From the NCBI RefSeq assembly GCF_044324785.1, contig NZ_CP172127.1: a stretch of DNA of 64,000 nt; one strand, 5' to 3'. This DNA is from Escherichia coli. Its GTDB lineage: Bacteria; Pseudomonadota; Gammaproteobacteria; Enterobacterales; Enterobacteriaceae. How positions within the stretch are numbered: the first letter of the stretch is position 1; the number at the start of each line of letters is the position of its first letter. The position numbers and the translations under genes were made by a program. The notes under the pieces are model-generated. The model was given only the letters and a program-made list of their open reading frames with translations. It had not been told where the DNA came from and did not search any database. Positions 32,482 through 55,828 of the stretch are shown here, piece after piece.

Positions 32482-32696
32482 CTTCTTTTCCTCTCGAATG
32501 TAAGATGGTAATTAACTTTACTACTTAAATTTAAATGTGAAAGATGTTTTTGTTATTTTATGGTTAACCCATTGTTTTATATGCTTTTAATTTGATATTT
32601 AGATCATTTTTTAGCTTTAAGGATCTGTGTCACATAAATTTAATGTTTAGTATGTAAATTTAATAATCATCTTTTTAACCGATGGAAGAGAGACTC

Positions 32697-36558: not shown

Positions 36559-36653
36559 GCTTCATTTCGCGCACAGCCATCCCCCTGAAATCTGGCTGAC
36601 TGTTATTTCGCAACAGTTATTGAGTAAATCTTTAACCTGTTAACAGAGGGTTT

Positions 36654-37178
36654 ATGAAACGTAAACTTATTGCCTTTGTGATTCTGGCTACATCATCCTG
36701 TGGATATGCAGCCACCAAAGATGTAACAATGAATCTTGTTGATAGTGACGGAAAAGAGCGAAATATTGGTAAAATAACCATCCAGAAGACACCCTACGGG
36801 CTGCTGTTCACCCCTGATCTTCACTCCTTACCCGCCGGCATTCATGGTTTTCATGTACATGAAAACGCAAGTTGTGCTCCTGCCCTGAAAGATGGAAAAA
36901 CTGTCGCTGCTTTATCTGCAGGTGGTCACTTTGACCCGGAAAAAACAGGGAAGCATCTCGGTCCATGGTCTCCTGATGGCCACCTGGGTGATCTCCCTGC
37001 GCTTTATGTCACTCATGACGGAAAAGCAACCTACCCGGTGCTTGCGCCAAGACTATCTGAATTAAAGGAGCTCGATGGCCGTTCGCTAATGCTCCACGCA
37101 GGAGGTGATAATCATGATGACCATCCTGAACCTCTAGGTGGCGGTGGTGCAAGAATTGCCTGTGGTATCATCCCATAA
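36654..37178 (+). CDS. sodC: Periplasmic Cu/Zn superoxide dismutase, prophage-type SodC (second copy)
   Basis: Identical 174-aa product to 22235..22759. Confidence 0.9.
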
Positions 37179-37306
37179 TCAATCAGGTAAGGGATATCCT
37201 CCCTTACCCTTAATCTTCCCTGGCTGCATGTGCATATCTTTCAGTTACTGTGAGATACCTGTATTACGGTGTCTTTTTAGCTCACAGAAATATCAGACAG
37301 CCCGTT

Positions 37307-37531
37307 TCAGTGTTTTATTACCTTAATCTTTTTACGGCATTCTTCAGCTCTTGCGCATGCTATTTTTTCACCTGTTTCATAACATTGCTGGCAGCCTAAT
37401 CCAAATTTCATCGCCATATCATAACCTTCCCGAAAACCTCGGAACCACGCGTTACGAAGGTATTCATCATATTCCCCGCAGTCAATAATAACCATTTTAT
37501 TTTCATGGGATTTTCCGGTATTCTCACTCAT
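37307..37531 (-). CDS. Hypothetical small Cys-containing protein (copy of 21882..22106)
   Basis: Same 74-aa product with 2 substitutions (H-to-Q, Y-to-C in the 119-aa track ORF). Confidence 0.35.
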   Translation of the reverse strand: MSENTGKSHENKMVIIDCGEYDEYLRNAWFRGFREGYDMAMKFGLGCQQCYETGEKIACARAEECRKKIKVIKH

Positions 37532-38360
37532 TTTCGATACCTCAATGCTTACAACAGAAAAGTATACTTTTACGAAGTTCGCCTTTGCAGGACTATATAA
37601 AGTTATCACTGGATGCAAGAGCCGGAAATCCTGTATATCAGGATCAACTTTGTAATTCAATAACATATTATCCAGTGAAAAAGTAAGTATATTTAAGCTG
37701 GGGAAGGAGAAGGGGGACTTGATTTGATATTTTCATCAATAATATTATTTTTCCTCCTCCATTATTCATTCAGACCTGGTTCCGGGCGTAATTCCGATTT
37801 CTCTGTTGAAGCGATGCATTTATATTTAAATATTCACCTGTCATTGAATTTTATTTGAAATAGGAGAAAATCTCCTCCTGTACTACAGATAACCCGGAAT
37901 GTTCCTCGAAAGAAAATTCTGGCGCAGAATTCACGCCCGGTTCTGTTCAACATCATGCAGGATAACGATACCGAAACGTTAAACTCTGGCAATTCTCGTG
38001 TTATACACAGGCAGGAGTGATTACTACGGTAAGAATTGCTGAAAAGGGGAGAACACTGAAGGCCTTATTCGCGAAGAATAAAGGAGACATTTCATGTAAA
38101 TTATTATCAGAGATAACCTTCTCCAGGCGCTTTTGTTCGCTTCCTGAATTGCTACCTGATACATATTTACGGGATGCCAGCCTGGTGACTATAACTCCGA
38201 AAAGACCGATTATTGTATTGCGTGCATCCGGCATGTTTACAATGTACGCTGGTATCTAACGGAGTCTGACACAGATGCACGCAGGTGTATATTTTAACGT
38301 AATTATCCGGAAAGAACAGTATATTTTAATGCGGGAGTTGCATGAGCGGTGGATTTGCCC

Positions 38361-39266
38361 CTATATTTCCAGACACCTGTTATCACTTAACCCATTACTG
38401 GCCTGCTGCCGCAGATATTCCCGTGGCGAGCGATAACCCAGTGCACTATGCGGATGCCATTCGTTATAATGCTCGAACGCCTCTGCAAGGTTCTTTGCTG
38501 CCGTTAACCCGTCTGGTTTAGGCATGATACTGATGTAGTCACGCTTTATCGTTTTCACGAAGCTCTCTGCTATGCCGTTACTCTCCGGACTCCGCACCGC
38601 CGTGTTCTTCGGTTCAAGCCCCAACATCCGGGCAAACTGCCGTGTTTCATTAGCCCGGTAGCATGAACCATTATCCGTCAGCCACTCTACTGGAGACGCC
38701 GGAAGCTCGTTGCCGAAGCGGCGTTCCACCGCTCCCAGCATTACGTCCTGTACTGTTTCACTGTCGAAGCCGCCCGTAGTGACTGCCCAGTGCAGTGCCT
38801 CACGGTCACAGCAGTCCAGCGCGAACGTGACTCGCAGTTTTTCTCCGTTATCACAGCGGAACTCGAACCCGTCAGAGCACCATCGTTGATTGCTTTCTTT
38901 CACGGCCACTTTGCCAGTATGTGCCCGTTTCGATGGCGGTACAGCGGTTTTTCGCTCAAGCAACAGCGCATTCTGGCGCATGATCCGGTAAACACGTTTG
39001 GCATTGATCGCAGGCATACCATCAAGTTCGGCCTGTCTGCGAAGCAGCGCCCATACCCGACGATAACCATACGTGGGCAGCTCTCCGATAACATGGTGTA
39101 TACGGAGAAGCACATCCGTATCATCTGAGTGACGGCTGCGGCGACCATCTTTCCAGTCATCGGTTCGTCTGAGAATTACGTGCAACTGCGCACGCGACAC
39201 CCGGAGACAACGGCTGACTAAGCTTACTCCCCATCCCCGGGCAATAAGGGCGCGTGCGCTATCCAC
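38361..39266 (-). CDS. insD: IS2 transposase InsD (orfB)
   Basis: 301-aa [33 protein letters not shown]...[22 protein letters not shown]. Confidence 0.9.
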
Positions 39267-39589
39267 TTTTTTGCACGCCCGTATTCAACGGCTTCTTTAA
39301 GGAGTTCATTTTCCATCGTTTTTTTGCCGAGCAGGCGCTGGAGTTCTTTAATCTGCTTCATGGCAGCAGCAAGTTCAGAGGCAGGAACGACCTGCTCTCC
39401 TGCGGCCACAGCAGTAAGACTTCCCTCCTGGTATTGCTTGCGCCAGAGAAATAACTGGCTGGCTGCCACACCGTGTTGCCGGGCAACAAGGGAGACCGTC
39501 ATTCCCGGTTCAAAACTCTGCTGAACAATAGCGATCTTTTCCTGTGTAGTACGCCGTCTGCGTTTCTCCGGTCCTAAGACATCAATCAT
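39224..39589 (-). CDS. insC: IS2 InsC (orfA)
   Basis: [52 protein letters not shown]...; the track ORF is extended upstream to 39634. Confidence 0.85.
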
Positions 39590-39681
39590 CTGCTCTCCAA
39601 TGACTAGTCTAAAAACTAGTATTAAGACTATCACTTATTTAAGTGATATTGGTTGTCTGGAGATTCAGGGGGCCAGTCTAA

Positions 39682-39948
<267 letters not shown>

Positions 39949-40069
39949 CAACGTATTCATGAGCTGGAAAAGCAGGTTCGTCGCCTGGAGGAACAAAAAA
40001 CGATATTAAAAAGCTACAGTGCTCTTGATATCCTCCCCACTGAACGGTTTACGATAGTTACCAGACTGA

Positions 40070-40499
<430 letters not shown>

Positions 40500-40744
40500 T
40501 AATTACACTGTGGGTTGACGCCGGAAGAATCAGAGAACAGATACCGTTCTTACTGTAAAACGTGGCTAATATTAATTGAGCACTGCAGTGTTCAGAGCAC
40601 AAAGAAGAAAAAAGATGTGTGCGAATGCCTGTAATGTGTTAAAAGAATGTTCCGCGTTTCCGGTACGCTTTTCGTAACTAACAATGCAGGGTGACGTAAC
40701 GCTGGTTGTGCCGGAAACGCGTCCCTCCCCCTATCTTTCCTGTT

Positions 40745-40770
40745 TGGATTTGCCCCTATATTTCTGGATT
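40745..40770. repeat. Solo IS2 end remnant
   Basis: TGGATTTGCCCCTATATTTCTGG matches the IS2 terminal sequence; no IS2 genes adjacent. Confidence 0.4.
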
Positions 40771-41080
40771 ATCCGACAAAACCGGCGTGAAGTATTACTC
40801 TCGTCGCCCAGCACCATAAGGATAACGCCCATAAAATCATGAAACTTTTCTTCCAGATTGGATACAATCAGGCCGAAACGGTGATGAATATTATCCAAAT
40901 CTGATGGTTCGTAGCGTTTTCAGCCCCCAGATTCTGAGTTGCCTGTAGGGATGATTTCAATTCCCGATTTGTCTATCGCATAGAGAAAAAGAATTTCATT
41001 TCTGTTCACCAGAACCCATGTAACCCACTCCAATTCGTTATTTATCTCACTGATTGCCCTTCATTTATCTCATTGATGCA
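40771..41080 (-). pseudogene. Possible yahC-like membrane protein remnant, truncated by the IS2 end remnant
   Basis: Minus-strand frame NLEEKFHDFMGVILMVLGDESNTSRRFCR directly abutting the IS2 remnant; position matches K-12 yahC (memory of synteny, not verified). Confidence 0.25.
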
Positions 41081-41108
41081 CCGAAAGGTAAAACTGCCAT
41101 CCGGTGCA

Positions 41109-42038
41109 TCACGCTCGATGCATCAAATCCTGATAAATCCCCGTCAGTATTCCTTGTAAGCTAAATTCTCTTTTTATCCACTGAGTGACTTGACCGCTTG
41201 CCGAATGCCTGGTTGCCAACAGCATTCGTGAATCCTGACGTGGGTTGCGGATCTGCCGTGTCACCAGCAATGACTTTTCCATCGCTTCACGCACCATATA
41301 GTCTGGCAGAAAACCGATTCCCTCCCCCAGGATCTGGCACTGAAGCTTAGTATTAAAGTCGGGAACCAGAATCGACTCTTGCCCGTGTAACAGCCAGCCG
41401 ACTTTTTTGTTTATAGTGTTTGCAGTGTCTTCCACCATGATGTTCGGGTACAGACGTAACTGACTCTCAGAAATGGGCTCAGGAATAAACGCCAGCGGAT
41501 GAGCCGGAGAAATCGCGAACAACCAACGAATCATGCCGATTTCAATGTAATCAATTCCACCACCGTCCAGTAACGTATCGGGCGCGCCAATGGCGATATC
41601 AGCCTGGTTATTAATGAGTGAATCCCAGACGCCATTATACACCTCTGTAGTAATAGCTATCTGGCAGGTTGGAAAGTGTTCCCTGAGCACTTGCAGAAGC
41701 CGAGCTGTATGCTGAGGGGTATACAACAGTTGATTAATACAAATGCGCACCCGGGATTTAATTCCCTGAGCGATGGCATCAACTCTACGTATGATGGAGT
41801 GGTAATCGTTGAGCAGGTCAGTTGCTTTGCAAAAAAGGTAGTGCCCGGGCTCGGTCAGCTCAATGCTACGGGTAGTTCGGGTAAAAAGCACCACGTCAAG
41901 CCCCATTTCCATACGCTTGATAGTGTAACTAATTGCCGATGTGGTTAAGCCCAGTTCCTTCGCCGCCTTGCTGAAACTTCTATAGCGGGCAGCCATAGTA
42001 AATGCCAGTAAGTTTTCTTCCGTAAATATTGAATTCAT
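41109..42038 (-). CDS. yahB: LysR-family transcriptional regulator (YahB-like)
   Basis: MNSIFTEENLLAFTMAARYRSFSKAAKELGLTTSAISYTIKRME HTH, LysR substrate-binding domain; the track ORF is extended upstream to 42167. Confidence 0.75.
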   Translation of the reverse strand: MNSIFTEENLLAFTMAARYRSFSKAAKELGLTTSAISYTIKRMEMGLDVVLFTRTTRSIELTEPGHYLFCKATDLLNDYHSIIRRVDAIAQGIKSRVRICINQLLYTPQHTARLLQVLREHFPTCQIAITTEVYNGVWDSLINNQADIAIGAPDTLLDGGGIDYIEIGMIRWLFAISPAHPLAFIPEPISESQLRLYPNIMVEDTANTINKKVGWLLHGQESILVPDFNTKLQCQILGEGIGFLPDYMVREAMEKSLLVTRQIRNPRQDSRMLLATRHSASGQVTQWIKREFSLQGILTGIYQDLMHRA

Positions 42039-42424
42039 CTTTCTTTCCTCTGGCGACAATACACATACACAACATGATGATTGTTGAATGTATTTGTAAT
42101 TCTTATAACCGGCAATCAGTTTTGAAAAAATTAACACCGTATTTACATTTAATTTGAAGGAAATCACACATCTGAATTTTAATTACAGGCAGCTATCCGT
42201 GCTGCAGACCACCTTTATTTATATGACTGCGGATTAATGGCTAAAATATCCCAGCTATAATAGAAATATTGCACTATATCACACTCTCTTATTATTGTTA
42301 ATTTTGTTTCAATAATTCATGGTCTAATGATGAGTAAATTTTAAATGGATGGTGCTCTATGCATTCTGTTGCTATTCTTGGCTTGTTATATTTGTAAAAT
42401 CTTAAAAAGAGCAGGAGATCGATT

Positions 42425-43030
42425 ATGTCCAATAAAGAACTCATTACAGAATTTCTGCTGGCGGCAGAACAAGGTAATGCCGATGGATTAAAATCATGCC
42501 TTGATAAAAAGGTTGATATTAATGCGACTAACCGCGAGGGGCGTACTGCAATTATTATTGCCAGTCTGAATAAACATTATGACTGCGTTTCTTTATTGAT
42601 TTCCGCAGGTGCTGATATTAATAAACAAGATCAAACTTGTTTTAATCCCTTCCTGATTGGCTGCCTGAATAATGATTTAACACTGTTGCGTACGGTATTA
42701 CCGGCTAACCCCGACCTTAATTGCCTAACCCGTTTTGGCGGTGTTGGTATTACACCTGCCTGCGAAAAAGGCCATGTCGAGATTGTACGTGAATTGCTGA
42801 TGCGTACTGATATCAATGTCAACCATACTAATTTTGTTGGCTGGACGCCGCTCCTAGAGGCCATCGTGCTGAATGACGGCGGTGAAAAGCAGCAGGAGAT
42901 CGTCAAACTGTTGCTTGAGCATGGCGCAAACCCGCACATGACGGATAAATACGGTAAAACCCCGCTGGAGCTGGCGCGAGAAAAAGGCTACCACAAAATT
43001 GCCGAGTTGCTGATTTCGGCTGGAGCCTGA
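42425..43030 (+). CDS. yahD: Ankyrin-repeat protein (YahD-like)
   Basis: 201-aa ORF with repeated ankyrin motifs (GRTAIIIASLNKHYDCVSLLISAGADIN, GWTPLLEAIV...LLLEHGANP). Confidence 0.75.
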   Translation: MSNKELITEFLLAAEQGNADGLKSCLDKKVDINATNREGRTAIIIASLNKHYDCVSLLISAGADINKQDQTCFNPFLIGCLNNDLTLLRTVLPANPDLNCLTRFGGVGITPACEKGHVEIVRELLMRTDINVNHTNFVGWTPLLEAIVLNDGGEKQQEIVKLLLEHGANPHMTDKYGKTPLELAREKGYHKIAELLISAGA

Positions 43031-43115
43031 CAACAGGAGCACGATTATCGCTATATTATCACGGCAATCTTTTCGGGCACTAACCGCAGACTGCGCGTTT
43101 CTCACTTTTCGGGGA

Positions 43116-43964
43116 ATGGGCCAGGTTGAACAGGTTTTTTCCCATGCGGTAAATCTGTTAATACCTGAACAGCAGCGACTGCTGACGTTACTGAGTGAGG
43201 ATTGTGATAACGCACCTAACAGTTGTCGTTTAGCACTGACACATTATGAAGACCTTTTTCACCCCGGTGAACAGGTCAATTTTAGCGGGTCTGGAATAAC
43301 TGTTGGAAATGATAAATGGATAGAAATAACCGGTTGTCAGATGTGGCGAATACCACGGTGGACATCTGATTCAGCAAGCCTTGCCAAAGTCGGCTGGCAG
43401 CATTGGGAAGAGTTTATCCGCCAACAACTAAGAAGCAACGACACATTATTTCTGTACCAGGGTGACAATCCATTTTATCAGGAAATTTCTCGCCAATTAC
43501 TCAACCGCCGAAAAAATTTGCTGAAGGCGTTGTGTACAGGAGAAAACATCACTGCGGCAGTCAACCAGTTAATTGGTCTTGGAATAGGGCTGACGCCATC
43601 ATCGGATGATTATTTAGTAGGTTTAAGCACTATTTTATTTATTCAAGGACATCCACTAAGGAAGTATAGATACGATTTCTTAGCAGCATTACAACTTGCA
43701 GGAAATAACATAACGCTTCTCAGCAAAATAACGTTAGAGGAAGCATTTAATCAGCGTTATCGGGAAAGAGTCGGACGGCTACTGAACCAATTTATTACTG
43801 AGCCACAACCCATTTCTACGCAATATGTTACTGACATAAAAAATATAGGCTCAAGTTCTGGATGCGACATGCTGTATGGCATGGCGGATGCCTGCGCCCT
43901 GAGCCACAGGTCCGGAGGTAATTATGTCAATCAGGATAGTTGTAAAAAAAAACACGTATTTTGA
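43116..43964 (+). CDS. yahE: YahE-like protein of unknown function
   Basis: 282-aa ORF; position and size match yahE of the E. coli yah cluster (memory of synteny). Confidence 0.6.
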   Translation: MGQVEQVFSHAVNLLIPEQQRLLTLLSEDCDNAPNSCRLALTHYEDLFHPGEQVNFSGSGITVGNDKWIEITGCQMWRIPRWTSDSASLAKVGWQHWEEFIRQQLRSNDTLFLYQGDNPFYQEISRQLLNRRKNLLKALCTGENITAAVNQLIGLGIGLTPSSDDYLVGLSTILFIQGHPLRKYRYDFLAALQLAGNNITLLSKITLEEAFNQRYRERVGRLLNQFITEPQPISTQYVTDIKNIGSSSGCDMLYGMADACALSHRSGGNYVNQDSCKKKHVF

Positions 43965-45471
43965 TTCTGTTTCACTGATGTCTATCTCCACGCGCGCAAA
44001 TAAGCTTGATGGAGTTGAGCAGGCATTTGTTGCTATGGCGACAGAGATGAATAAGGGGGTGCTGAAGAATCTCGGTCTGCTGACCCCTGAGCTGGAAGAG
44101 GCGAAAAGTGGCGATCTGATGATTGTCATTAAAGGTACCAGCGAGGAGGCGAACGAGCGGACGCTAATAGCGATTGATGAGCTGTTTGCGCATAAAGAAC
44201 AGGGAGGCCAGCACGAAGCACGCTATGCCACGATTGCCAGTGCGAAGAAGCATGCTCCAGAGAGTAATCTGGCGGTGATCTCTGTCAATGGCCTGTTTGC
44301 TGCTCGTGAAGCTCGTCAGGCACTACAAAATAACCTCAATGTTATGCTGTTTTCTGACAACGTCTCTCTTGAGGACGAGCTGGAACTCAAGCATCTGGCA
44401 CATGAAAAAGGGTTGTTGATGATGGGGCCTGATTGTGGAACCGCCATCATTAACGGCGCAGCGTTGTGTTTTGGCAATGCAGTGCGTCGCGGCAACATCG
44501 GAATCATTGGTGCCTCCGGTACGGGTAGCCAGGAGCTGAGCGTACGCATTCACGAATTTGGCGGCGGGATTTCCCAGCTGATTGGGACAGGTGGACGCGA
44601 TATGAGTGAAAAAATTGGCGGCCTGATGATGCTTGACGCGATTAGCATGCTGGAGGCCGATCCACAAACTGAGATCATTACGCTTATATCCAAACCTCCT
44701 GCACCAGCGGTAGCCCGTAAGGTGCTGGAACGTGCGCGCACCTGTCACAAGCCTGTGGTGGTGTGTTTCCTCGGACGTGAGTCCACCCCTGCGGATGAAG
44801 AAGGCCTACAGTTTGCCCGCGGTACTAAAGAGGCTGCCTTGAAAGCGGTACTGTTGACTGGTGTGAAAAAAGAGAGTCTGGATTTGCATCCGCTCAACTG
44901 GCAGCTGATTGAAGAGGTTCGCTCCCGTCTGACTCCACAACAAAAGTATATCCGTGGCCTGTTCTGTGGTGGCACGTTATGCGATGAAGCGATGTTTACT
45001 GCCATGGAAAAACTCTCGGATGTGTATAGCAATATTCACCCGAATCCGGCGTTCCGCCTTACAGATCTCAACCGTAGCGTGGCGCATACCTTCCTCGATT
45101 TCGGCGATGATTATTTTACCAACGGCAAACCACATCCGATGATCGATCCCACCAATCGCATTACCCGGCTCTTGCAGGAAGCACAGGATCCTGAAGTTGG
45201 CGTGATCGTGATGGACTTCATTCTTGGATTTGGATCACATGAAGATCCGGTTGGAGTGATGCTGGATACAATTGTTGAAGCCAAAGAAATTGCTGCCGCA
45301 GACGGTCGCCCGCTTGAGATCCTCGGCTATGTGCTGGGAACCGACCTTGATACACCGTCGCTGAAAAAACAGTGTCAGATGTTGACCGATGCCGGGGTTA
45401 TTTGGGCAAGCAGTAGCACCAACACCGGATTACTGGCACGTGAATTTATATTTAAAGGGGAGGAAGGCTGA
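43924..45471 (+). CDS. yahF: FdrA/YahF-like acyl-CoA synthetase (succinyl-CoA synthetase alpha-like fold)
   Basis: 515-aa ORF, CoA-binding/ligase-CoA-type glycine-rich motifs (GIIGASGTGSQE, GPDCGTAIING). Confidence 0.75.
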   Translation: MSIRIVVKKNTYFDSVSLMSISTRANKLDGVEQAFVAMATEMNKGVLKNLGLLTPELEEAKSGDLMIVIKGTSEEANERTLIAIDELFAHKEQGGQHEARYATIASAKKHAPESNLAVISVNGLFAAREARQALQNNLNVMLFSDNVSLEDELELKHLAHEKGLLMMGPDCGTAIINGAALCFGNAVRRGNIGIIGASGTGSQELSVRIHEFGGGISQLIGTGGRDMSEKIGGLMMLDAISMLEADPQTEIITLISKPPAPAVARKVLERARTCHKPVVVCFLGRESTPADEEGLQFARGTKEAALKAVLLTGVKKESLDLHPLNWQLIEEVRSRLTPQQKYIRGLFCGGTLCDEAMFTAMEKLSDVYSNIHPNPAFRLTDLNRSVAHTFLDFGDDYFTNGKPHPMIDPTNRITRLLQEAQDPEVGVIVMDFILGFGSHEDPVGVMLDTIVEAKEIAAADGRPLEILGYVLGTDLDTPSLKKQCQMLTDAGVIWASSSTNTGLLAREFIFKGEEG

Positions 45472-46889
45472 TGAGCCAGACACTGTTTAATCAGCCGCTG
45501 AACGTTATTAATGTCGGTATCGAAATGTTCAGCGATGACATGAAAAAGCAGAATGTACCGGTAACCCAACTTGACTGGACACCGCCAGGCCAAGGAAACA
45601 TACAAGTGGTAACGGCACTGGACGACATTGCCGCTTCACCACTGGCAGACAAAATTGCAGCTGCTAATCAGCTGGCGCTGGAACGCATTATCCAGTCGCA
45701 TCCTGTGCTAATTGGCTATGATCAGGCGATCAACGTCGTGCCGGGTATGACCCGTAACACTATCCTTCACGCCGGGCCGCCAATCCACTGGGAAAAAATG
45801 TGCGGCGCAATGAAGGGCGCAGTAACCGGGGCTCTGGTATTTGAAGGACTGGCGAAAGATCTGGATGATGCCGCCGAACTAGCTGCTTCAGGTGAAATCA
45901 TCTTCTCTCCGTGCCACGAACATGACTGTGTCGGCTCAATGGCGGGTGTCACGTCTGCATCGATGTTTATGCACATCGTCGAGAACAAAACCTATGGAAA
46001 CCGCGCATATACCAATATGAGCGAGCAGATGGCAAAGATCCTGCGTATGGGCGCTAACGACCAGAGCGTTATAGAGCGTCTTAACTGGATGCGAGATGTA
46101 CTGGGACCTATGTTGCGCGATGCTATGAAGCTGGCGGGCGAAATCGATCTGCACTTGATGTTAGCGCAGGCGCTGCATATGGGCGATGAGTGCCATAACC
46201 GCAACAACGCCGGGACGGCGCTGCTGATTCAGACGCTGACGCCGTGGATTATTCAGACTGGCTACCCTGTTGAGCAGCAGCGTGAGGTGTTCGAGTTTGT
46301 CCTCAGTAGTGATTACTTCTCAGGACCAACATGGATGGCAATGTGTAAAGCCGCAATGGACGCTGCGCACGGCATTGAATACAGCACCGTGGTGACAACG
46401 ATGGCACGCAATGGTGTTGAGTTCGGTCTTCGTATTAGCGGTTTGCCGGGCAAGTGGTTTACCGGTCCGGCGCAGCAGGTGATTGGGCCGATGTTTGCGG
46501 GCTATAAGCTAGAGGATTCCGGACGTGATATCGGTGATAGTGCAATTACCGAAACCTACGGCGTTGGCGGTTTCGCTATGGCGACGGCACCAGCTATTGT
46601 GTCACTGGTGGGCGGAACAGTTGAGGAAGCTATTGATTTCTCACGTAAAATGAGAGAAATCACTCTCGGAGAAAACCCCAACGTCACCATTCCCCTGCTT
46701 GGTTTTATGGGCGTACCGACCGCTATCGATATTACGCGTGTAGGCAGTACAGGCATTCTGCCGGTAATTAACACAGCCATTGCGCACAAAGACGCAGGGA
46801 TCGGCATGATCGGCGCAGGAATTGTTCACCCGCCGTTCACTTGTTTTGAAAAGGCGATCCTCAACTGGCGTGACCACTACTGCCAATAA
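45471..46889 (+). CDS. yahG: YahG/YlbE-like DUF1116-family protein
   Basis: 472-aa ORF translationally coupled to yahF. Confidence 0.7.
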   Translation: MSQTLFNQPLNVINVGIEMFSDDMKKQNVPVTQLDWTPPGQGNIQVVTALDDIAASPLADKIAAANQLALERIIQSHPVLIGYDQAINVVPGMTRNTILHAGPPIHWEKMCGAMKGAVTGALVFEGLAKDLDDAAELAASGEIIFSPCHEHDCVGSMAGVTSASMFMHIVENKTYGNRAYTNMSEQMAKILRMGANDQSVIERLNWMRDVLGPMLRDAMKLAGEIDLHLMLAQALHMGDECHNRNNAGTALLIQTLTPWIIQTGYPVEQQREVFEFVLSSDYFSGPTWMAMCKAAMDAAHGIEYSTVVTTMARNGVEFGLRISGLPGKWFTGPAQQVIGPMFAGYKLEDSGRDIGDSAITETYGVGGFAMATAPAIVSLVGGTVEEAIDFSRKMREITLGENPNVTIPLLGFMGVPTAIDITRVGSTGILPVINTAIAHKDAGIGMIGAGIVHPPFTCFEKAILNWRDHYCQ

Positions 46890-47001
46890 CAATAACCGGG
46901 GCTAACGCAGTTAGCCCCACAGTAGCGGAAAACGTTGTTTACCTTCAGGGCTGGGCGATCTCCATGATCGCAAACGATGCTTAACCTGTTAAGGAGATTC
47001 C

Positions 47002-48552
47002 ATGAACAGCATAAAACTAGAATGGAAACGTGGTGACTGGGCGGCTTACTTTGGACTGATGACCAACAATCTGACTAACCTGCTGACAATGATGGGTCTG
47101 CTAATTTTTGTCGTCGGAATCCCTACTGAAATTGTCTATGGACGCATTGCGCCTGCCTTTGGTCTTGCAGTGCTGGCGGCCAGTGTCTGCTACTCCTGGT
47201 TTGGTCTACAGATGGTGAAGAAAACCGGTCGTAGCGATGTAACGGCGCTGCCGTCTGGACCGAGCGCACCCTCAATCTTTACCGTGACATTCCTGGTGCT
47301 GATGCCGGTTTATCAGCAAACCAAAGATGCCAACTTTGCTATTCAGATAGGATTGGTGTGGTGCTTTGTCGAAGCGTTGATCCTGGTCGGTGGCTCCTTC
47401 CTGGGTGAGACTATCCGCAAGATGATCCCGCGTACAGTGCTGCTTTCTTGTCTGTCCGGACTGGGGTTATTACTGCTGGCAATGAACCCGATGCTGCAAG
47501 CGTTCGAAGCGCCGACAGTTTCTTTCATCGTCCTGTTATTGATCTTCATTAACTGGTTCGGTAAGAAGCCGATTTTTCCCCATATTCCTACCGGTTTGCT
47601 GTTGCTGATTGCTGGTACGTCCCTAGCGTGGATATCCGGTTTACAAAGCCCGGAAGACATTAAAGCGTCGATGTCTTCCTTCGGCTTCAACCCGCCGGAA
47701 ATTCATGTAAGGAGCTTCCTGCAAGGTTTGCCGCACGCTCTGCCATATCTGGCTTCTGCAGTTCCTTTGGGCCTGGCTAACTACATTTTTGACCTCGAGA
47801 ACATTGAAAGTGCGCACGCGGCTGGTGATGAATACAACACCCGTAAGGTCATGATGGCGAACGGCTTTGCCTCCATGCTCGGTTGCATGCTGGGTAATCC
47901 GTTCCCGGTAACCGTATATGTTGGGCATGCAGGCTGGAAAGCTATGGGCGCTAGTATCTGCTATACCCTCGCATCAGGCATCACTATGTTTCTGGTGCCA
48001 TTGTTTGGGTTGGGCGCGTTTATGCTCGCCATTATTCCCATGACTGCTATAGTGCCAATTCTGGTTTTTATCGGTGTGGTAACCGCCAATCAGGTGGTGC
48101 GAGAAACTCCTAAAGTCGAGGTTCCCGTCATTTTCATCTGTCTGTTCCCATGGGTCGCCAACTGGGCATTGACCATCGTTAACAGCGTGATGGGCGCAGC
48201 CGGAACATCCGCTGAGAAACTTGGTAGCGACCTGTTGCACAGCAAAGGCGTCTATTACGATGGACTGATGCATCTGGGAAGCGGTGCACCGCTGGCCAGC
48301 ATGCTGTGGGGATGCATTGCTATCTTTGCCATTATGAATAAGCCGCTGCGCGGGGCGATAGCTGCATCCTTTGGAGCACTGTTATCGCTGTTTGGCGTGA
48401 TTCACTCCCCAGCGGTTGGCTTTGCGGAAGGCAGCTCGATTGTGTTTGTTGTGGCCTACCTGATGATGCTTGCTATGTTTGCCCTCAAGCATGTTATTGA
48501 TAGCCGTGAAACAGTGGCTGCGTCTGAGCAGGAAGAGACTAAAACGACCTGA
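47002..48552 (+). CDS. Integral membrane transporter, 516 aa, family not assigned
   Basis: More than 10 predicted hydrophobic segments; located between yahG-like and yahI-like genes. Confidence 0.7.
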   Translation: MNSIKLEWKRGDWAAYFGLMTNNLTNLLTMMGLLIFVVGIPTEIVYGRIAPAFGLAVLAASVCYSWFGLQMVKKTGRSDVTALPSGPSAPSIFTVTFLVLMPVYQQTKDANFAIQIGLVWCFVEALILVGGSFLGETIRKMIPRTVLLSCLSGLGLLLLAMNPMLQAFEAPTVSFIVLLLIFINWFGKKPIFPHIPTGLLLLIAGTSLAWISGLQSPEDIKASMSSFGFNPPEIHVRSFLQGLPHALPYLASAVPLGLANYIFDLENIESAHAAGDEYNTRKVMMANGFASMLGCMLGNPFPVTVYVGHAGWKAMGASICYTLASGITMFLVPLFGLGAFMLAIIPMTAIVPILVFIGVVTANQVVRETPKVEVPVIFICLFPWVANWALTIVNSVMGAAGTSAEKLGSDLLHSKGVYYDGLMHLGSGAPLASMLWGCIAIFAIMNKPLRGAIAASFGALLSLFGVIHSPAVGFAEGSSIVFVVAYLMMLAMFALKHVIDSRETVAASEQEETKTT

Positions 48553-48578
48553 ATAGCCTGCAAACGGAAGATAATTCT

Positions 48579-49541
48579 ATGAAAGAACTTGTGGTCGTTG
48601 CCATTGGTGGCAACAGCATTATCAAAGATAACGCCAGCCAGTCGATTGAGCATCAGGCGGAGGCGGTGAAGGCCGTCGCCGATACGGTTCTGGAAATGCT
48701 GGCTTCCGATTACGACATTGTGCTGACCCACGGCAACGGGCCGCAGGTCGGTCTGGATTTACGCCGCGCGGAGATAGCCCACGAGCGCGAAGGGCTACCC
48801 TTAACGCCGCTGGCGAACTGTGTGGCGGATACGCAAGGCGGCATTGGCTATCTGATCCAGCAGGCGCTGAACAACCGGCTGGCGCCTCTCGGCGAGAAAA
48901 AAGCCGTCACCGTGGTGACTCAGGTGGAAGTGGATAAAAACGATCCGGGGTTTGTCCATCCCACCAAGCCCATCGGTGCATTCTTTAGTGAAAACCAGCG
49001 TGATGAACTACAAAAGGCAAACCCTGACTGGCGTTTTGTTGAAGATGCCGGACGGGGCTATCGCCGCGTGGTCGCCTCGCCGGAACCGAAACGTATTGTC
49101 GAAGCACCTGCCATTAAGACTCTGATCCAGCAAGGCTTTGTGGTGATTGGCGCGGGCGGCGGTGGCATTCCGGTGGTGCGTACTGACGCAGGGGATTACC
49201 AAAGCGTGGACGCGGTTATCGACAAAGATCTCTCTAGCGCGCTACTGGCTCGCGAAATTCACGCCGACATTCTGGTGATCACCACCGGCGTGGAAAAAGT
49301 GAGTATTCATTTTGGGAAACCCAACCAGCATGCACTGGATACAGTGGATGTCCTAACGATGGCCCGTTACATGCAGGAGGGTCACTTCCCGCCTGGGAGT
49401 ATGTTACCGAAGATTCTTGCCAGTCTGGAGTTCCTGGAACGTGGAGGTAAAAGAGTGATTATCACCACGCCTGAATGCCTGTCCGCGGCACTGCGTGGCG
49501 AAACAGGCACCCATATTATCCACTCCCAAGAGGAGACGTAA
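48579..49541 (+). CDS. yahI: Carbamate kinase-like protein (YahI/ArcC family)
   Basis: VVVAIGGNSI...LTHGNGPQVG...GGGGIPV amino-acid-kinase-family motifs. Confidence 0.8.
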   Translation: MKELVVVAIGGNSIIKDNASQSIEHQAEAVKAVADTVLEMLASDYDIVLTHGNGPQVGLDLRRAEIAHEREGLPLTPLANCVADTQGGIGYLIQQALNNRLAPLGEKKAVTVVTQVEVDKNDPGFVHPTKPIGAFFSENQRDELQKANPDWRFVEDAGRGYRRVVASPEPKRIVEAPAIKTLIQQGFVVIGAGGGGIPVVRTDAGDYQSVDAVIDKDLSSALLAREIHADILVITTGVEKVSIHFGKPNQHALDTVDVLTMARYMQEGHFPPGSMLPKILASLEFLERGGKRVIITTPECLSAALRGETGTHIIHSQEET

Positions 49542-50328
49542 ATTAAGGAAAGCGACCGCCGCCGTGAATTTTTAATGTTCATTGCAGATTATCGTGGGCT
49601 GGAAATGATAACGGTTGGGGAGTTATTGTTTAGTTGCTAAAACAGAACGATAACCAACCCCAACCGTTCTCAATTTCGAATACTATCTTTTCCATTTATC
49701 TCTGGATAGGCTTTGACGTCGTCCCTACTGAGTAAAATCCCCCTCATCATCCACCTAAAACCGATTGAAAACGGTCATTACTCTTGTGGCAAACAGGCTA
49801 AAGCCGTTCACGATGCTTCACTTCGCACCTTATCGTAATGAACAATACTGGTATTTCCAGTTCAGTTACGCCTACCCGTCTACCGCATTCTTTGCCCTAA
49901 CTGCGGCATAGTTCGGGATTATATCAGCTGGCTAAAGCCTTATGCTCATCAGACCACATGACTCATTGAGCATGTTGAGGCGTTACTCAAAATCTTGCCG
50001 ATTAAACATATTTCGTAATTTCTTACCCTGCACTAACATATCATCAATACTATCGACAAACGTCAGTTGCAAATAGAGGTCACAGGGTCTGATTGATGTA
50101 CTGTCAAGGCCGGGTCATGAAAGAGTTTGCCCTGTTCAAAGCTCATCGTTACGCACCGTCGTAGCCGATGCGGATACTCATCAATCCTCTGGATAGGTGA
50201 GGTGCGTAGTAGAGAAGCTCGGTCGTTTTTCGTTAATCTGAATCAGTACTGTCAACATATTCAAGTCGTTAATATGGATATGAATACCTCCTTTGACCTA
50301 GAGGTACAGATGCACTACCCCCCAAGCT

Positions 50329-50352
50329 GTCAACGACGGATGAAAAGTGGCT
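50329..50352. repeat. Solo IS21-family (IS100-like) terminal IR remnant
   Basis: TGTCAACGACGGATGAAAAGTGGC, matches the IR at 12747..12772 and 29826..29850. Confidence 0.4.
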
Positions 50353-50684
50353 CTTCCGCAACCTGGATGGAGATTTTCATGCCAGTGGACTCATGACCCT
50401 CTGCCTGAGTAGTTCAAATCCGGCTCGACCATACATCTGGCCTTTCAGCATTTTTAGCCAATTTACATGACTTTCGACCACCCCCCATTATTCCAGCGAC
50501 TGCTGATTGCCTCACATATAGCCGCAGCATCAGCTACCATCCTTGCAGCCACGCGCCGAAGTTACCACTTTCTCGTTGCTCTTTTAACCACTCCCTCCAT
50601 GGGTCCAGAAGTCCTCGCTCTGGAGGCCGGGTTGACATTTCAGGGAATGTTCCTGAACACACCCAGAGACTGACTGTCACACGT

Positions 50685-50741
50685 GATAAGCCTGTAATAC
50701 GGGATAAGCCTGTAATACGGGATAAGCCTGTAATACGGGAT
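50685..50741. repeat. Perfect 19-bp tandem repeat x3 (GATAAGCCTGTAATACGGG)
   Basis: Three exact head-to-tail copies; read through by the tail of the 50640..51539 ORF (IPYYRL x3). Confidence 0.9.
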
Positions 50742-50779
50742 ATTTCCCCTGAACCCACATCCCTTGTTATGTAGTGCCA

Positions 50780-51539
50780 TAACCTCTGTCCAACGCTGAT
50801 GCCGTTTTTGGCGGGTTTGCTGTTTAAGGCGTTCCGGACGACGGAGCGATGCTACAGGCACAGACAGTACTGGCTTAGGTGATTTCTTTGGTGACAACCC
50901 ACTGGCAACAAGACGTATCAGAGGCATCTGTCTGTACATCATTCGTTCAGGCGCATCGCCAATATTTTTTAGCAGGTGCCATCGATCAGCTATCTGTCTG
51001 GCCTGAGGTGCACCTTCACGTGCTGCTGTCGCATAGACTCCGCCACGGTCACGTGAGACAACCTGTATTTCCGGATATTTTCTGAACCAGGTCGCCAGCG
51101 TACTCTGATCGCAACCGGGAAGCAGGACGAGGGGACGGTGAGTATCAAGATTGACAATTAACGTGCCGTAATGGTGGCCCCGATGCCACGCCCACTCATC
51201 AATACCGACATGAGGCGCGCCCGACTGTTTCGTCTCCGGGGTATTAATAACCCTGCGAAGAAGAGTATCAGCACTGCAACGGAGCCCCACTGCCGTTGCT
51301 GCCTGTTTCCCGGCCTCACCTCCGGCTATTAATCCCAGTTGATGTTGTAAATTTTGTAACACCTGTGAAGAATGCTGGGAGTGAACCGGCGAAGGGGGCA
51401 AGCGACCCGGCAAAAATTTTACGTGAACAAGCCGGGTTACGGCAGTACCAGTGGCGGACGGAAAATACAAGCCATAGCGTCTGCCCTGAGCAGGGTAGAT
51501 GCTGTATCCGGCGCCGACGATAACTATGAACAGAGTCAC
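50780..51539 (-). pseudogene. ISL3-like transposase fragment, N-terminally truncated
   Basis: GIDEWAWHRGHHYGTLIVNLDTHRPLVLLPG...VVSRDRGGVYATAAREGAPQARQIADRWHLLKNIGDA resembles the ISL3-family catalytic region; no N-terminal zinc-finger/HTH part. Confidence 0.45.
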
Positions 51540-51716
51540 TACGCTTAAAGCATTCAGGACTTGTGCTGTTTTGCGTTTTCCGTGGAGATGGAGGGTTATA
51601 CCGTCAGAGCTAATAATTTGTCGACTGCATCTCCATCCGCAAGGTAACTGTAGAAGTGTCTGGTGATGCTGCCAACTTACTGATTTAGTGTATGATGGTG
51701 TTTTTGAGGTGCTCCA

Positions 51717-51992
51717 GTGGCTTCTGTTTCTATCAGCTGTCCCTCCTGTTCAGCTACTGACGGGGTGGTGCGTAACGGCAAAAGCACCGCCGGACATCAG
51801 CGCTATCTCTGCTCTCACTGCCGTAAAACATGGCAACTGCAGTTCACTTACACCGCTTCTCAACCCGGTACGCACCAGAAAATCATTGATATGGCCATGA
51901 ATGGCGTTGGATGCCGGGCAACTGCCCGCATTATGGGCGTTGGCCTCAACACGATTTTACGTCACTTAAAAAACTCAGGCCGCAGTCGGTAA
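51717..51992 (+). CDS. insA: IS1 InsA
   Basis: [88 protein letters not shown]. Confidence 0.9.
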
Positions 51993-52414
51993 CCTCGCGC
52001 ATACAGCCGGGCAGTGACGTCATCGTCTGCGCGGAAATGGACGAACAGTGGGGCTATGTCGGGGCTAAATCGCGCCAGCGCTGGCTGTTTTACGCGTATG
52101 ACAGTCTCCGGAAGACGGTTGTTGCGCACGTATTCGGTGAACGCACTATGGCGACGCTGGGGCGTCTTATGAGCCTGCTGTCACCCTTTGACGTGGTGAT
52201 ATGGATGACGGATGGCTGGCCGCTGTATGAATCCCGCCTGAAGGGAAAGCTGCACGTAATCAGCAAGCGATATACGCAGCGAATTGAGCGGCATAACCTG
52301 AATCTGAGGCAGCACCTGGCACGGCTGGGACGGAAGTCGCTGTCGTTTTCAAAATCGGTGGAGCTGCATGACAAAGTCATCAGGCATTATCTGAACATAA
52401 AACACTATCAATAA
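51911..52414 (+). CDS. insB: IS1 InsB frame (expressed as an InsAB fusion by frameshifting)
   Basis: ...[51 protein letters not shown]... Confidence 0.9.
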
Positions 52415-52425
52415 GTTGGAGTCAT

Positions 52426-52578
52426 TACCGTGTTCCCGACAGACGACTCGGTGAAAAAAGTGGTGTGGCTGGCAATCCAGTCTGCGTCCCAGAAATGGAC
52501 GATGCCGTTGAAGGACTGGCGAATGGCAATGAGCCGCTTTATTATCGAGTTCGGTGACCGCCTGGACGGTCACTTCTG
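52426..52578 (+). pseudogene. IS256-family transposase C-terminal fragment (last about 50 aa), abutting the IS1 right end
   Basis: VFPTDDSVKKVVWLAIQSASQKWTMPLKDWRMAMSRFIIEFGDRLDGHF-stop. Confidence 0.75.
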
Positions 52579-52848: not shown

Positions 52849-53304
52849 TTATTCAACACCTGAATCCCCCGCCGCTTCTCTCCCCTTTATAAAACGCCCC
52901 TTCCGGAATCCAGACCGCTGCAGTGCACGACGAAGATGACCGTATACCGTCTTGTCATTCTGCCCCGTCTCTTCTGTAATCTCCGCAATACTTAAACCTC
53001 TGTAATACCGGTTCAGTAACGCTCTGCGCTCTTCCAGCGTCAACACACCTCCGGCCGCTCTCAGATTCAGCATCGACTTATTCAGAATACAGCAGGCCTC
53101 TCCGGTAAAAAGAATACGAACAATATCTGTATACTCATCATCACAGAATACAAAATAATATCTGAATGACCTGCCTGACTGCACCCTTCTTCTGTCTGAT
53201 ATGGCATCTTCTATATATCTGATTCGACTGCTTACGGTTCCAAATACCTCTCGCAGGGCTTTTTCAAAATAAATATCTCTCGTCGCCAGGATTATATCCA
53301 GCAT
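52849..53304 (-). CDS. LuxR/FixJ-type HTH transcriptional regulator
   Basis: 151-aa ORF; C-terminal LTLEERRALLNRYYRGLSIAEITEETGQNDKTVYGHLRRA resembles a LuxR-type HTH; N-terminal domain unassigned. Confidence 0.55.
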   Translation of the reverse strand: MLDIILATRDIYFEKALREVFGTVSSRIRYIEDAISDRRRVQSGRSFRYYFVFCDDEYTDIVRILFTGEACCILNKSMLNLRAAGGVLTLEERRALLNRYYRGLSIAEITEETGQNDKTVYGHLRRALQRSGFRKGRFIKGREAAGDSGVE

Positions 53305-53365: not shown

Positions 53366-54631
53366 TCAGAACTCAAAATTCACACCAGCATTCCACGATG
53401 CGGATGACCCACCTGCAGCAACTGCAACTTTTCCTGCCACATTCTCTGTGAAACGGTAGCCCACGCCCACCGCAATGGCCTGCTCATCACGGTAACCACC
53501 AACGGCTGCTGTCGCGTTAAATTTTCCAACACTGTATGGCTGGAAAAGACCGGCCAGTGCCGCGCTCTGGGCTGCACTCTCCCTTAACTCCTTCCGGTTC
53601 TCTTTAATCTGCTCCTGCATATTATTCATTCTCTCTGTCGCCATCTTCTGCCAGGCTTCCGTCAAATCCAGACGATGACTGTTATTCCTTATCGCTGCTG
53701 TATTTGAGGCTATTGCTGCATCCGTCTGCGCCCTGTTCTTCACAAGCACATCGCTGAGATGTTCTGCCTGGCTTTTCGCTTCTTTACGGGCATCCCGTAC
53801 ACTTTTATCTGTATAAGCCCGGGAAACCTGAACTGTTTCATCCGCTTTTTCTTTTATTTCATCCTGAAGAGCAAGAGAAGATGCATCCGTATACGCCACC
53901 GCTGCCGATGTGCCTGCAATAATATCCCTGCTGAGTTCATCACGTACTGCTGTAACCTGACTGTCAGTATGAGCACGGGCATCTCTGTATACACCGCCTA
54001 TCTCACCGCGCAGGGCATCCCCCGACACCCGTACAGCATCTGCAATGGCGTTGTCCATCTGTCCTTTTGTGGCCGCATCACTATCCTTAACACCATCTGA
54101 AACATTTATAATCCGGCGGGTTTCCGGTGCTCCTTTGACACTCTCTCCATATCCCTCAGGCCCGGCACCAACAGATACCACGTTATTTTCTCCCGACACC
54201 TGTGAGCCATGGCCCAGAGCTACAGAACTGGTAGAATCCTGCACAGATGAAAACGCACCAATTGCCGAGCTCTGACGAGAAGAAATAAGTGACGCTTCTT
54301 TTCCTGCAACAGTCCCCCATTCAGAGTCAGCAATAAGTGCATCATGCCCCAGACTCACACTTCCCGGAGAGTTCACAACACCAGAATTATTCCCCAAAAG
54401 CACAGTCCTGTTTGAGTCTAATAAAAAAGAATCATCACCAATCAACCATACATTTCTTACTTTATCAATCGAACGGCCAGCTACTGATTCTCCAACAAGA
54501 AAGCTATTATCTTCGCCAGGTTCAATCGGTCCGATTAAAATATCCTGAGCCTGAGCCTGAGCCGAGAGCAGCAGGGCCACACTCACTGCCAGCGCGCTTT
54601 TCTTTAAAAAAGCATCACGTCTTTTAAGCAT
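53366..54631 (-). CDS. Trimeric autotransporter adhesin, YadA/Eib-like
   Basis: Signal peptide [28 protein letters not shown]; coiled-coil stalk; C-terminal YadA-type anchor ([42 protein letters not shown]...GVNFEF); the track ORF starts 54 bp earlier. Confidence 0.8.
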
Positions 54632-55828
54632 TCTGTTATTCTCCTGTATTATTACTTCACCAGCCAGAACGGTAGTGCGGAGCAAAAATACAGTGATAAG
54701 AATCCTCTTTTATTAATTTAATAATGCCAGGAATATTATTGTGTATAATATGCGCCCTCAATTTAAGCAGCAGAAAAGCAATGACGAGAAAATCATTAAA
54801 ATACATAAAGATAAAACATCATAACTATAATTATAATAAGCGCGCTTATTTTAGCATCTGAACATTTAAAGTACTGCTATCACAAAACAATAAAAATCCT
54901 GGGTAATATCTCTGATGATTGAATGAGAAATTCACGATGTCTGGTGAGAATTCTGTTCAAAACGAGGAATGCAGACATACATGTGGCAGGCATGGACTTC
55001 CACCGATTTAACTTTTTTCCTTCCTTGTATTTACACATCACACATTTTGCGCTACAAAAATTTCACGTGGCACGCACCACGTGATCCGTAGAAAAGCCTC
55101 TTGTTACGAATTTCGTAAACCGCACGTCTGTCTGGTCGTGCGGATTTTTTATCCGTCAACTTCACATGAAACCGCCAGATCACTGTTTCCGGATTCAGAC
55201 ATCAGGCATATTATCATCCACAATGTCGTGAACAAGATCACACTTTTGCAATTCCTTTATTGATCGAAAGCAGTTAATCACGGAAATTAATTACCGGAGT
55301 GAAAGCATTACTGCATCGTAAATATCTACCATTTTTGACTACACCCTCTGACAGAATTTTCAGAGGGTTTTTTATCAGTTTCACCATCCAACCCTGTACG
55401 CCAGAATGGTTTCACTGTCACTCAGTTCTGCTATTGCCTTTTTCATCTCCCTTTACCTTACGTTCTGCCAGAGTCTGAGCCATTTGAACAGGAGGTTATC
55501 ATTGATATCGTGTTCCCGGGCAATACGGGCAACAGAGGCTCCTGGTTGCAAAACCAGTTTAACCATTTGAAGTTTAACTCATTTGAAAATGATCTGCGGG
55601 GTTCTGCGGATAATGTTTTTGCTCCATAACAGGCGCCCACCAGTTTGAAAAGGTGGGCACCTACGTTACCAATACTGGCTTAATGGATACATACGGCGGT
55701 CGGTTCTTACGGTAAAACGACACAACCAAACGCTTCTTATCCTGCAATGAACTGCTTTATTACCGAGTTTAGTGACCGCACAGACACTCACTTTTAAGAA
55801 AAACAGAATGGTAAACAAACTCCATGAA

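Follow-up and report, generated by a model that had tools for sequence, protein, structure and literature searches.

A probable horizontally acquired, Citrobacter-type copy of a yah-type operon, with its own permease, in Escherichia coli

Three subunits, AllF, AllG and AllH, make up the oxamic transcarbamylase of Escherichia coli, an enzyme shown experimentally to convert oxalurate and phosphate to oxamate and carbamoyl phosphate; AllH is reported to be a required subunit and AllK a catabolic carbamate kinase (PMC11326118). The allF operon is activated by AllS (PMC12535856). Proteins of the same families are encoded by the yah locus, almost universal in E. coli, which in strain K-12 runs yahB-yahC-yahDEFG-(yahH)-yahI-yahJ. 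Another paralogue, with DUF2877, FdrA-like, DUF1116 and carbamate kinase genes, is accessory in avian and extraintestinal pathogenic E. coli (ExPEC): a yahEFG-like cluster lies in the tkt1 genomic island of avian pathogenic E. coli (APEC) O1 (PMC3349570), and likewise in GR29 of BEN2908 (PMC12928451). In the literature we found no characterised function for yahD-J, or for DUF1116 and DUF2877 proteins outside AllFGH, and no paper on the module described here, a gene cluster at 41109-49541 of a 64,000-nucleotide stretch of E. coli DNA (hereafter the window; contig NZ_CP172127.1, RefSeq assembly GCF_044324785.1). In identity, origin and anatomy this cluster is, as judged from sequence comparison, very probably a separate, horizontally acquired Citrobacter-type copy of the yah-type operon and not the native locus. 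A mobile copy of this kind, taken together with ureide catabolism as its function, is to us the likely explanation overall.

The open reading frames (ORFs) over positions 41000-49600 were examined and assigned to families by Pfam and NCBIfam profile search. Seven long ORFs, all of full length, follow one another in the order LysR, ankyrin, AllH-like, AllF-like, AllG-like, permease and carbamate kinase. A preliminary description of this DNA had listed the same order and families (LysR regulator, ankyrin, YahE-like, FdrA-like and DUF1116-like proteins, carbamate kinase), and intact ORFs with agreeing Pfam and NCBIfam assignments bear it out. It had also read the region as a yah cluster with an "extra" permease, that is, a native locus that gained a permease gene and lost its neighbours through insertion sequence (IS) activity. 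Such an origin would account for a gene order the same as that of yahB, yahD-G and yahI, but DNA identity to the K-12-type locus is only 69-89% (yahB 74%, yahD 69%, yahF-G 79%, yahI 89%). Protein identity to K-12 is 84% for YahB, 72% for YahD, 53% for YahE, 83% for YahF, 90% for YahG and 93% for YahI. Neither near-identity nor the chromosomal neighbours of the native locus (pdeL/yahA upstream, yahJ-yahK downstream) were found for the window copy; its flanks are IS elements, and the native flanks are pdeL(yahA)/betT and yahK/prpR.

Searched by megablast against 5426 complete E. coli genomes, the cluster gives two classes of match. Roughly 139-148 records match over the full length at no less than 99% identity, and some 5000 cover only 47% of the query, at about 82%, this second class being the annotated yahE-fdrA(yahF)-yahG-(yahH)-yahI locus. 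One record with the island copy shows three matching places. The permease gene is present in 141 of the 5426 genomes (2.6%), always at 99% identity or more, in 107 plasmid and 45 chromosomal places, so that the window copy is rare, mobile and mainly plasmid-borne, in contrast to the native locus. For most of the window proteins the Citrobacter orthologues are closer than E. coli Yah. Together with the ancestry of the permease discussed below, these comparisons leave a native locus with an inserted permease refuted, its chance of being right negligible.

Chromosomal operons of Citrobacter youngae, C. braakii, C. werkmanii and other Enterobacterales have the identical order LysR-Ank-AllH-AllF-AllG-permease-carbamate kinase, and the proteins of the Citrobacter operons are 87-96% identical to those of the window (AllH 74-81%). 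In blastn against these Citrobacter-type loci the window aligns as one collinear block at 82-85.5% DNA identity. The block starts at 41077-41116, just beyond the terminator hairpin of the LysR gene, and always ends at 49575, and these limits of homology define a captured yah-type operon segment of 8.5 kb (41077-49575). The Citrobacter-type operons run on into an intact yahJ with a twin-arginine translocation (Tat) signal and into ordinary neighbours, whereas the window copy is IS-flanked and cut at yahJ codon 11. Since DNA identity is only 82-85%, the true donor is not among the sampled genomes.

The permease, which the preliminary description correctly placed between the yahG-like and yahI-like genes as a 516-residue membrane protein (47002-48552, plus strand), is no addition to the operon. 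Its homologues, 64-95% identical, range from Enterobacterales and other Gammaproteobacteria to Firmicutes, and in the gene neighbourhoods of Enterobacter cloacae, a Citrobacter-like contig, Janthinobacterium and Brevibacillus it lies in every case within an Ank-AllH-AllF-AllG-carbamate kinase cluster. A species-level scan, of one genome per GTDB species, gave 80 permease loci. By tblastn with the window proteins, AllG- and/or carbamate-kinase-like genes of the cluster adjoin the permease gene in all 80, and the exact order LysR (minus strand), Ank, (AllH), AllF, AllG, permease, carbamate kinase, YahJ is kept in 65 of them, which belong to Enterobacterales and Aeromonas. Herminiimonas/Janthinobacterium, Bosea, Azospirillum, Ramlibacter, Brevibacillus and Paenibacillus have this gene set as well. 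No Escherichia representative was among the 80 loci, though taxa of only 69-72% identity turned up. Because the linkage is complete and the order so often exact, the permease is a standard member, and we read it from these comparisons as the operon's own ancestral transporter across Proteobacteria and Firmicutes. The synteny comparison thus disposes of the "extra" permease, one part of what the preliminary description named as telling against itself; the other part, that all neighbours be intact, is not what the window holds.

By the same comparisons, the native E. coli yah locus is the atypical, degenerate form, having lost the permease and gained yahC. It shares families and order with the window at 53-93% amino acid identity, but where the window has the permease, K-12 has 3.9 tandem copies of a 93-bp repetitive extragenic palindromic/bacterial interspersed mosaic element (REP/BIME) unit that fill the yahG-yahI interval and are annotated as yahH. 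No relic of a permease was detected by tblastn in this spacer. The annotated YahH falls wholly inside the 93-bp copies (yahG-yahI spacer, 9067-9426 in a K-12-type locus record), and on this sequence it is most unlikely that yahH is a gene; in some E. coli lineages the yahG-yahI spacer is shorter and bears no yahH annotation. K-12 further has yahC (DUF1097), between yahB and yahD, and an intact yahJ, while the window has no yahC and 34 bp of yahJ. A yahC remnant truncated by an IS2 end had been proposed for the window; tblastn with K-12 YahC gave no match in the whole window or in any of the 80 related loci, and the IS2, separated by 1.4 kb from the 3' end of the LysR gene, truncates no yah gene. 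The 386-bp yahB-yahD interval of the window has a similarly short counterpart in Citrobacter and Enterobacter, both likewise without yahC. We therefore take yahC to be an Escherichia addition and not a loss here.

The window proteins are nearer to Yah than to AllFGHK or to the tkt1-island paralogues. Identity to AllF, AllG and AllK is 38, 46 and 38%, and to the corresponding tkt1-island proteins 41, 48 and 48%; AllH gave no BLASTP detection. In the tkt1-island cluster, 41-48% identical to the window, an NCS1 "cytosine permease", a small hypothetical protein and an isochorismatase-family hydrolase replace the permease, the ankyrin protein and YahJ. The IncFII plasmid pDETEC66 carries a tkt1-type cluster (25514-32530: DUF2877, FdrA-like, DUF1116, arcC, hypothetical, cytosine permease, LysR) about 4 kb from a yah-type module, and one plasmid therefore holds two different AllFGH-like systems.

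At the left of the cluster stands the YahB-type LysR-family regulator (41109-42038, minus strand, 309 residues; Pfam HTH_1 and LysR_substrate). A longer GTG ORF of 352 residues reaches 42167; the regulator gene itself is the shorter one, since the homologous regulators all have 309 residues and the Prokaryotic Genome Annotation Pipeline (PGAP) calls the identical 930-bp coding sequence in identical DNA. Its top NCBIfam models are AllS and PunR, both under cut-off (AllS 268 bits against a cut-off of 372), and it is 39% identical to AllS. The divergent intergenic region (42039-42424, 386 bp) has no YahC match and is presumed to be the control region. A consensus scan for promoters and terminators over 40900-49700 gave a signal no higher than the shuffled expectation. 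Next comes the YahD-type ankyrin-repeat protein (42425-43030, plus strand, 201 residues; Pfam Ank families), whose structural-genomics homologues 5D66 and 3HRA are YahD-like ankyrins without assigned function.

Genes of the FdrA/AllF, AllG and AllH families are adjacent on the plus strand, and their Pfam scores exceed the gathering cut-offs. These are the YahE-type AllH/DUF2877-like subunit (43116-43964, 282 residues; Pfam AllH, PF11392, 1.2e-22), the YahF-type FdrA/AllF-like subunit (43924-45471, 515 residues; CoA_binding and Ligase_CoA, with 489.9 bits to the NCBIfam FdrA subfamily against a cut-off of 433) and the YahG-type AllG/DUF1116-like subunit (45471-46889, 472 residues; Pfam AllG, PF06545, 6e-90). 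The AllF-like protein matches the FdrA structure 3DMY (E = 1e-83), which carries no function, and the AllG-like protein matches 3CLQ, an uncharacterised DUF1116 protein (E = 2e-192). At the N-terminus of the AllG-like protein (window 45471-45630), residues 12-53 match the last 40 residues of K-12 AllF/FdrA; the boundary between the F and G subunits is therefore placed differently in the Yah and All paralogues. A catalytic Cys in an FCGGT motif of the FdrA-like protein, replacing the phosphohistidine of succinyl-CoA synthetase, was considered and dropped: FdrA has YTGGT, and the alignment with the synthetase falls short.

The last gene is that of the YahI-type carbamate kinase (48579-49541, plus strand, 320 residues), which scores 625 bits with NCBIfam PRK12352 (cut-off 266) and 344 bits, just under the cut-off of 358, with the arcC model TIGR00746. 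In the alignment of the yahI-yahJ junction its stop codon is mutated, making it 4 residues longer than its orthologues. A G+C-rich hairpin with a 10-bp stem (46897-46919, plus strand; the terminator scan reported it on the minus strand) lies between the AllG-like and permease genes. As the plus-strand genes overlap or are separated by 26-112 bp, they fit a single operon divergent from the regulator. PGAP has already annotated the cluster publicly, with the names "AllH family protein", "FdrA", "YlbE family protein", "xanthine permease" and "carbamate kinase family protein".

The permease has no Pfam match, including to Xan_ur_permease (PF00860), even at E = 10, and no NCBIfam match; among sequences of the Protein Data Bank (PDB), neither phmmer nor a profile of its family found a match, and hhalign against the NCS2 member YbbY returned a probability of 0.3%. 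Sequence searches being negative throughout, the transporter classification called for in the preliminary description yielded something at the level of fold and nothing at that of family. An AlphaFold2 model (predicted local distance difference test score, 83) has short strands at residues 85-87 and 303-305, within invariant motifs, and a Foldseek search of the PDB with this model returned only SVCT1, SLC26Dg, BicA, UraA, UapA and AZG2, at TM-scores of about 0.45-0.5 and 11-17% identity. We predict from the model a UraA/SLC26-type fold of 7+7 inverted repeats with two short central strands in transmembrane helices TM3 and TM10, common to the NCS2 (UraA, UapA, SVCT), AzgA and SulP/SLC26 transporters. 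The signature motif of the nucleobase-ascorbate transporters (NAT), [QEP]-N-x-G-x4-T-[RKG] in TM10, was not found in the permease by regular-expression search, and the corresponding region reads GNPFPVTVYVGHAG.

The database names "xanthine permease" and "AGZA family", and a fold in common with UraA, UapA and AZG2, might suggest that the 516-residue protein is a xanthine/purine salvage permease which is in the operon by chance. No sequence profile ties it to NCS2, however, and the NAT motif is absent, so the name "xanthine permease" is unsupported. The anion carriers of SLC26/SulP fit the fold equally well, and a chance neighbour would hardly be linked to the enzyme genes in every one of the 80 loci. 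We regard a purine salvage permease as very improbable. By its sequence, the protein belongs to a tightly conserved transporter family of its own, without a Pfam or NCBIfam model; judging from the fold, it might carry a nucleobase-like molecule or else an organic anion.

What the operon might do is best approached from the all system, in which the same three subunit families occur together with a carbamate kinase and a LysR activator of the AllS kind, and for which the chemistry is the one that we propose here. By this analogy the idea of the preliminary description, that a carbamoylated or ureido compound is broken down by a catabolic pathway not yet characterised, gains in strength, since the FdrA/DUF1116/DUF2877 trio is of the AllFGH family and the regulator and kinase are paralogues of AllS and AllK. 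The two systems differ in that the all genes are ordered allF-G-H-K, as against H-F-G-permease-K in the window, and in that an ankyrin protein, a dedicated permease of the window family and a Tat amidohydrolase are missing from the all system.

Those differences bear on a second possibility, that the operon encodes another oxalurate-specific oxamic transcarbamylase, a duplicate of allFGHK serving the use of allantoin or oxalurate. The Pfam AllG and AllH matches, the NCBIfam FdrA subfamily match and the PGAP and Pfam names would suit it, as would a regulator whose best match is AllS; a periplasmic YahJ and an anion-type transporter could bring in exogenous oxalurate. Against this, the proteins are only 38-46% identical to AllF, AllG and AllK and the AllH likeness escapes BLASTP, the score of the regulator with the AllS model is under the cut-off, and the conserved partners (ankyrin, permease and YahJ) are not in the all regulon. 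The yah operon moreover co-exists with allFGHK in K-12, which argues for a different substrate. On balance oxalurate as the substrate seems to us unlikely.

In the ureide pathway that we prefer, complete operons also involve YahJ, a member of a cytosine-deaminase-like subfamily of amidohydrolases (NCBIfam PRK06846). Each of the 68 YahJ orthologues examined has at its start the twin-arginine signal SRREFL and a cleavage site of the AxA form. YahJ has been listed as a Tat substrate without known function, and a mutant of an ExPEC strain was mildly attenuated, with a competitive index of 0.70 (PMC7549933). Given the Tat signal, the first step of the complete pathway is probably periplasmic. In the Bosea and Paenibacillus operons a PucR-family regulator, of the purine catabolism type, replaces LysR, and the Brevibacillus operon additionally has an NCS1 permease and a deaminase of the cytidine deaminase (CDA) fold. 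That a deaminase, of one fold or the other, keeps recurring suggests an aminated N-heterocycle or an amide as the starting compound.

The full ancestral operon, as we reconstruct it, consists of a divergent LysR gene, the ankyrin, AllH-, AllF- and AllG-like genes, the permease, the carbamate kinase and the Tat-exported amidohydrolase YahJ. The YahB-type regulator would switch the operon on in response to a substrate or intermediate, and in complete operons YahJ would process the compound first, in the periplasm. A ureide (an N-carbamoyl compound or N-acylurea), probably derived from a purine, pyrimidine or related N-heterocycle, would be imported by the permease and cleaved with phosphate by the AllFGH-like complex to give carbamoyl phosphate. 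In this step the ankyrin protein would probably assist: the ankyrin gene was found in every related locus with sufficient upstream sequence, and a partner that is always present is likely to be an accessory subunit of the complex. Carbamate kinase would then convert carbamoyl phosphate and ADP to ATP, CO2 and NH3, and the pathway would supply both nitrogen and energy, in the way of the allS-allFGHK branch acting on oxalurate. For this mechanism, from ureide through carbamoyl phosphate to ATP, which we draw by analogy, the chances appear about evenly divided. In the truncated window copy the periplasmic step would come from the native yahJ of the host or be skipped; the window copy, with permease and no yahJ, and the native locus, with yahJ and no permease, could complement each other. 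That carriers may keep a native yahJ is indicated indirectly, by the near-universal native locus and the carrier record with three matching places.

Several points weigh against the ureide pathway, or against its working in the window copy. The AllH-like gene was not detected in 20 loci of the Enterobacter/Leclercia/Lelliottia/Silvania type, otherwise complete operons with about 107 bp between the ankyrin and FdrA-like genes, and it is by far the least conserved member elsewhere (26-81% identity), so the mode of action of the enzyme may differ from that of AllFGH. Among the encoded proteins there is no ring-opening enzyme, which leaves the route from heterocycle to acyclic ureide unexplained, and near the distant operons none of the hydantoinase, allantoinase or barbiturase type was found, only regulators (PucR, hybrid sensor kinase) and transporters (MFS, ABC). 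The literature searched shows no substrate, activity or expression for any yah-type operon. The window copy, without yahJ and amid IS debris, could be inactive cargo, and its avian enrichment, described below, could be explained simply by hitch-hiking on ColV-type plasmids.

At the right end of the segment, alignment with the Citrobacter and K-12 yahI-yahJ junctions reveals the first 34 bp of a yahJ-like gene (49542-49575, plus strand), comprising codons 1-11 with the Tat motif RRREFL and starting with ATT, not ATG. The stub reads ATT AAG GAA AGC GAC CGC CGC CGT GAA TTT TTA A, that is (M)KESDRRREFL, and similarity ends after ...CGTGAATTTTTAA. This stub was seen by DNA alignment; protein search found neither a YahJ nor a YahC homologue in the window at E <= 1e-3. 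Downstream the further yah genes give way to IS debris, as the preliminary description had it, and the neighbours on both sides are no longer intact. The right flank holds fragments of an ISL3-family transposase (50127-51598), of which the main pseudogene is on the minus strand and the fragment 50127-50396 on the plus strand (DDE_Tnp_ISL3 on 50127-50396 and 50640-51539; marked as frameshifted by PGAP), followed by an IS1 of 768 bp (51662-52429, plus strand; InsA/InsB Pfam matches) that is 99-100% identical to the IS1 copies of pDETEC66. On the left are a remnant of an IS3-family transposase pseudogene (39793-40423, plus strand; annotated by PGAP on identical sequence of strain A3176 and pDETEC66, with HTH_21 on 40094-40435) and an intact IS2 of 1331 bp (38350-39680, minus strand; rve and HTH_Tnp_1 ORFs), which sits in older IS3-family debris upstream of the module. 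Strain A3176 has an otherwise identical island in which this site is free of IS2, the flanks overlapping there by about 5 bp. The position of IS2 is polymorphic: A3176 has an identical IS2 (25720-27050 of its record) at the point matching window ~53089 (53084-53089), where the window has none.

Over window 39681-52429 the plasmid pDETEC66 aligns collinearly at 99.7%, and the same segment junctions occur in plasmid copies; all copies therefore come from one capture event. Insertion sequences would have captured the operon, in an event that cut yahJ after codon 11. On pDETEC66 a serine acetyltransferase gene is split by IS1 copies, with the module (4953-21185) between them; in the window IS1 is found on the right only. 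The bracketing by IS1 points to movement as a composite transposon, short of proof.

The debris invites a different view of the operon fragment, as functionally inert cargo that is decaying while it hitch-hikes with virulence plasmids or islands. A truncated yahJ with a mutated start codon would be expected of such cargo, as would the embedding in IS2, IS3, ISL3 and IS1 remains; the copies are all at least 99% identical, too similar to judge selection, and intact ORFs may reflect only recent origin. Yet seven ORFs are of full length, and the regulator and divergent control region have been kept. The module is found with identical junctions in 141 genomes, in plasmid and chromosomal contexts, and it supplies precisely the component, the permease, that the native locus of the host is without. 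Inert cargo therefore remains, in our estimate, a somewhat unlikely account, if less so than oxalurate use.

The captured copy now travels, mainly in avian E. coli, on conjugative ColV-like IncF plasmids and on chromosomal islands. Of 60 carriers sampled at even spacing, 35 were from birds (chickens, turkeys, ducks and others) and 19 from humans; about 70 plasmids in PLSDB have the module, nearly all of them from E. coli and conjugative. The window itself is an IS-rich chromosomal island, and a related strain has sit and aerobactin genes, which are ColV-type cargo, nearby.

Positions 1-20300 of the window are an IS graveyard, 100% identical to strain 23CRST007, in whose annotation they hold mostly pseudogenised IS630, IS3, IS110, IS21, IS66 and IS100 elements. 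The annotation also lists the reverse transcriptase of a group II intron, interrupted by a stop codon, a fragment resembling IbrB, and an additional amiC, seemingly intact, that encodes a Tat-dependent amidase (~6764-8023). An inverted duplication of 2.5 kb (20301-22823 versus 36590-38350 plus 39681-40447; 99.2-99.6% identity) carries sodC, a small hypothetical gene and the IS3-family remnant, its second copy being split by the IS2 at 38350-39680. The duplicate copies bracket about 13.8 kb, including a ROK regulator, a glycerophosphodiester phosphodiesterase and a four-gene ABC transporter, an arrangement that could allow inversion. Directly to the right of the IS debris is an ORF for a YadA-like trimeric autotransporter adhesin (53366-54685; YadA_anchor and stalk).

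To the existing annotation the comparison adds that the mobile copy is of Citrobacter type, that the permease is ancestral and the K-12 locus degenerate, that yahJ is cut at codon 11 and that the transporter family is unmodelled. One may go further and propose, as a tentative idea for which we would claim possibility rather than probability, that the yah-type operon is a distinct ATP-yielding route for an N-heterocycle-derived ureide, in which periplasmic deamination or hydrolysis by the Tat-exported enzyme would be followed by uptake through an undescribed family of UraA/SLC26 fold and by ankyrin-assisted, AllFGH-like phosphorolysis. K-12 would then have resisted the assignment of yahD-J since its transporter was lost, and the mobile copy would restore uptake, opening to avian E. 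coli a compound abundant in the uric-acid-rich excreta of birds. The genes yahD-J belong to the y-ome of E. coli, and the locus of the model organism is an incomplete form of an operon that is conserved widely. As the K-12 locus is without a dedicated permease, the complete gene set or a permease-bearing mobile copy is the right material for finding the substrate. The metabolic module is a regular cargo of ColV-type plasmids and islands in poultry-associated E. coli, and it could matter for the supply of nitrogen and energy in a uric-acid-rich host.

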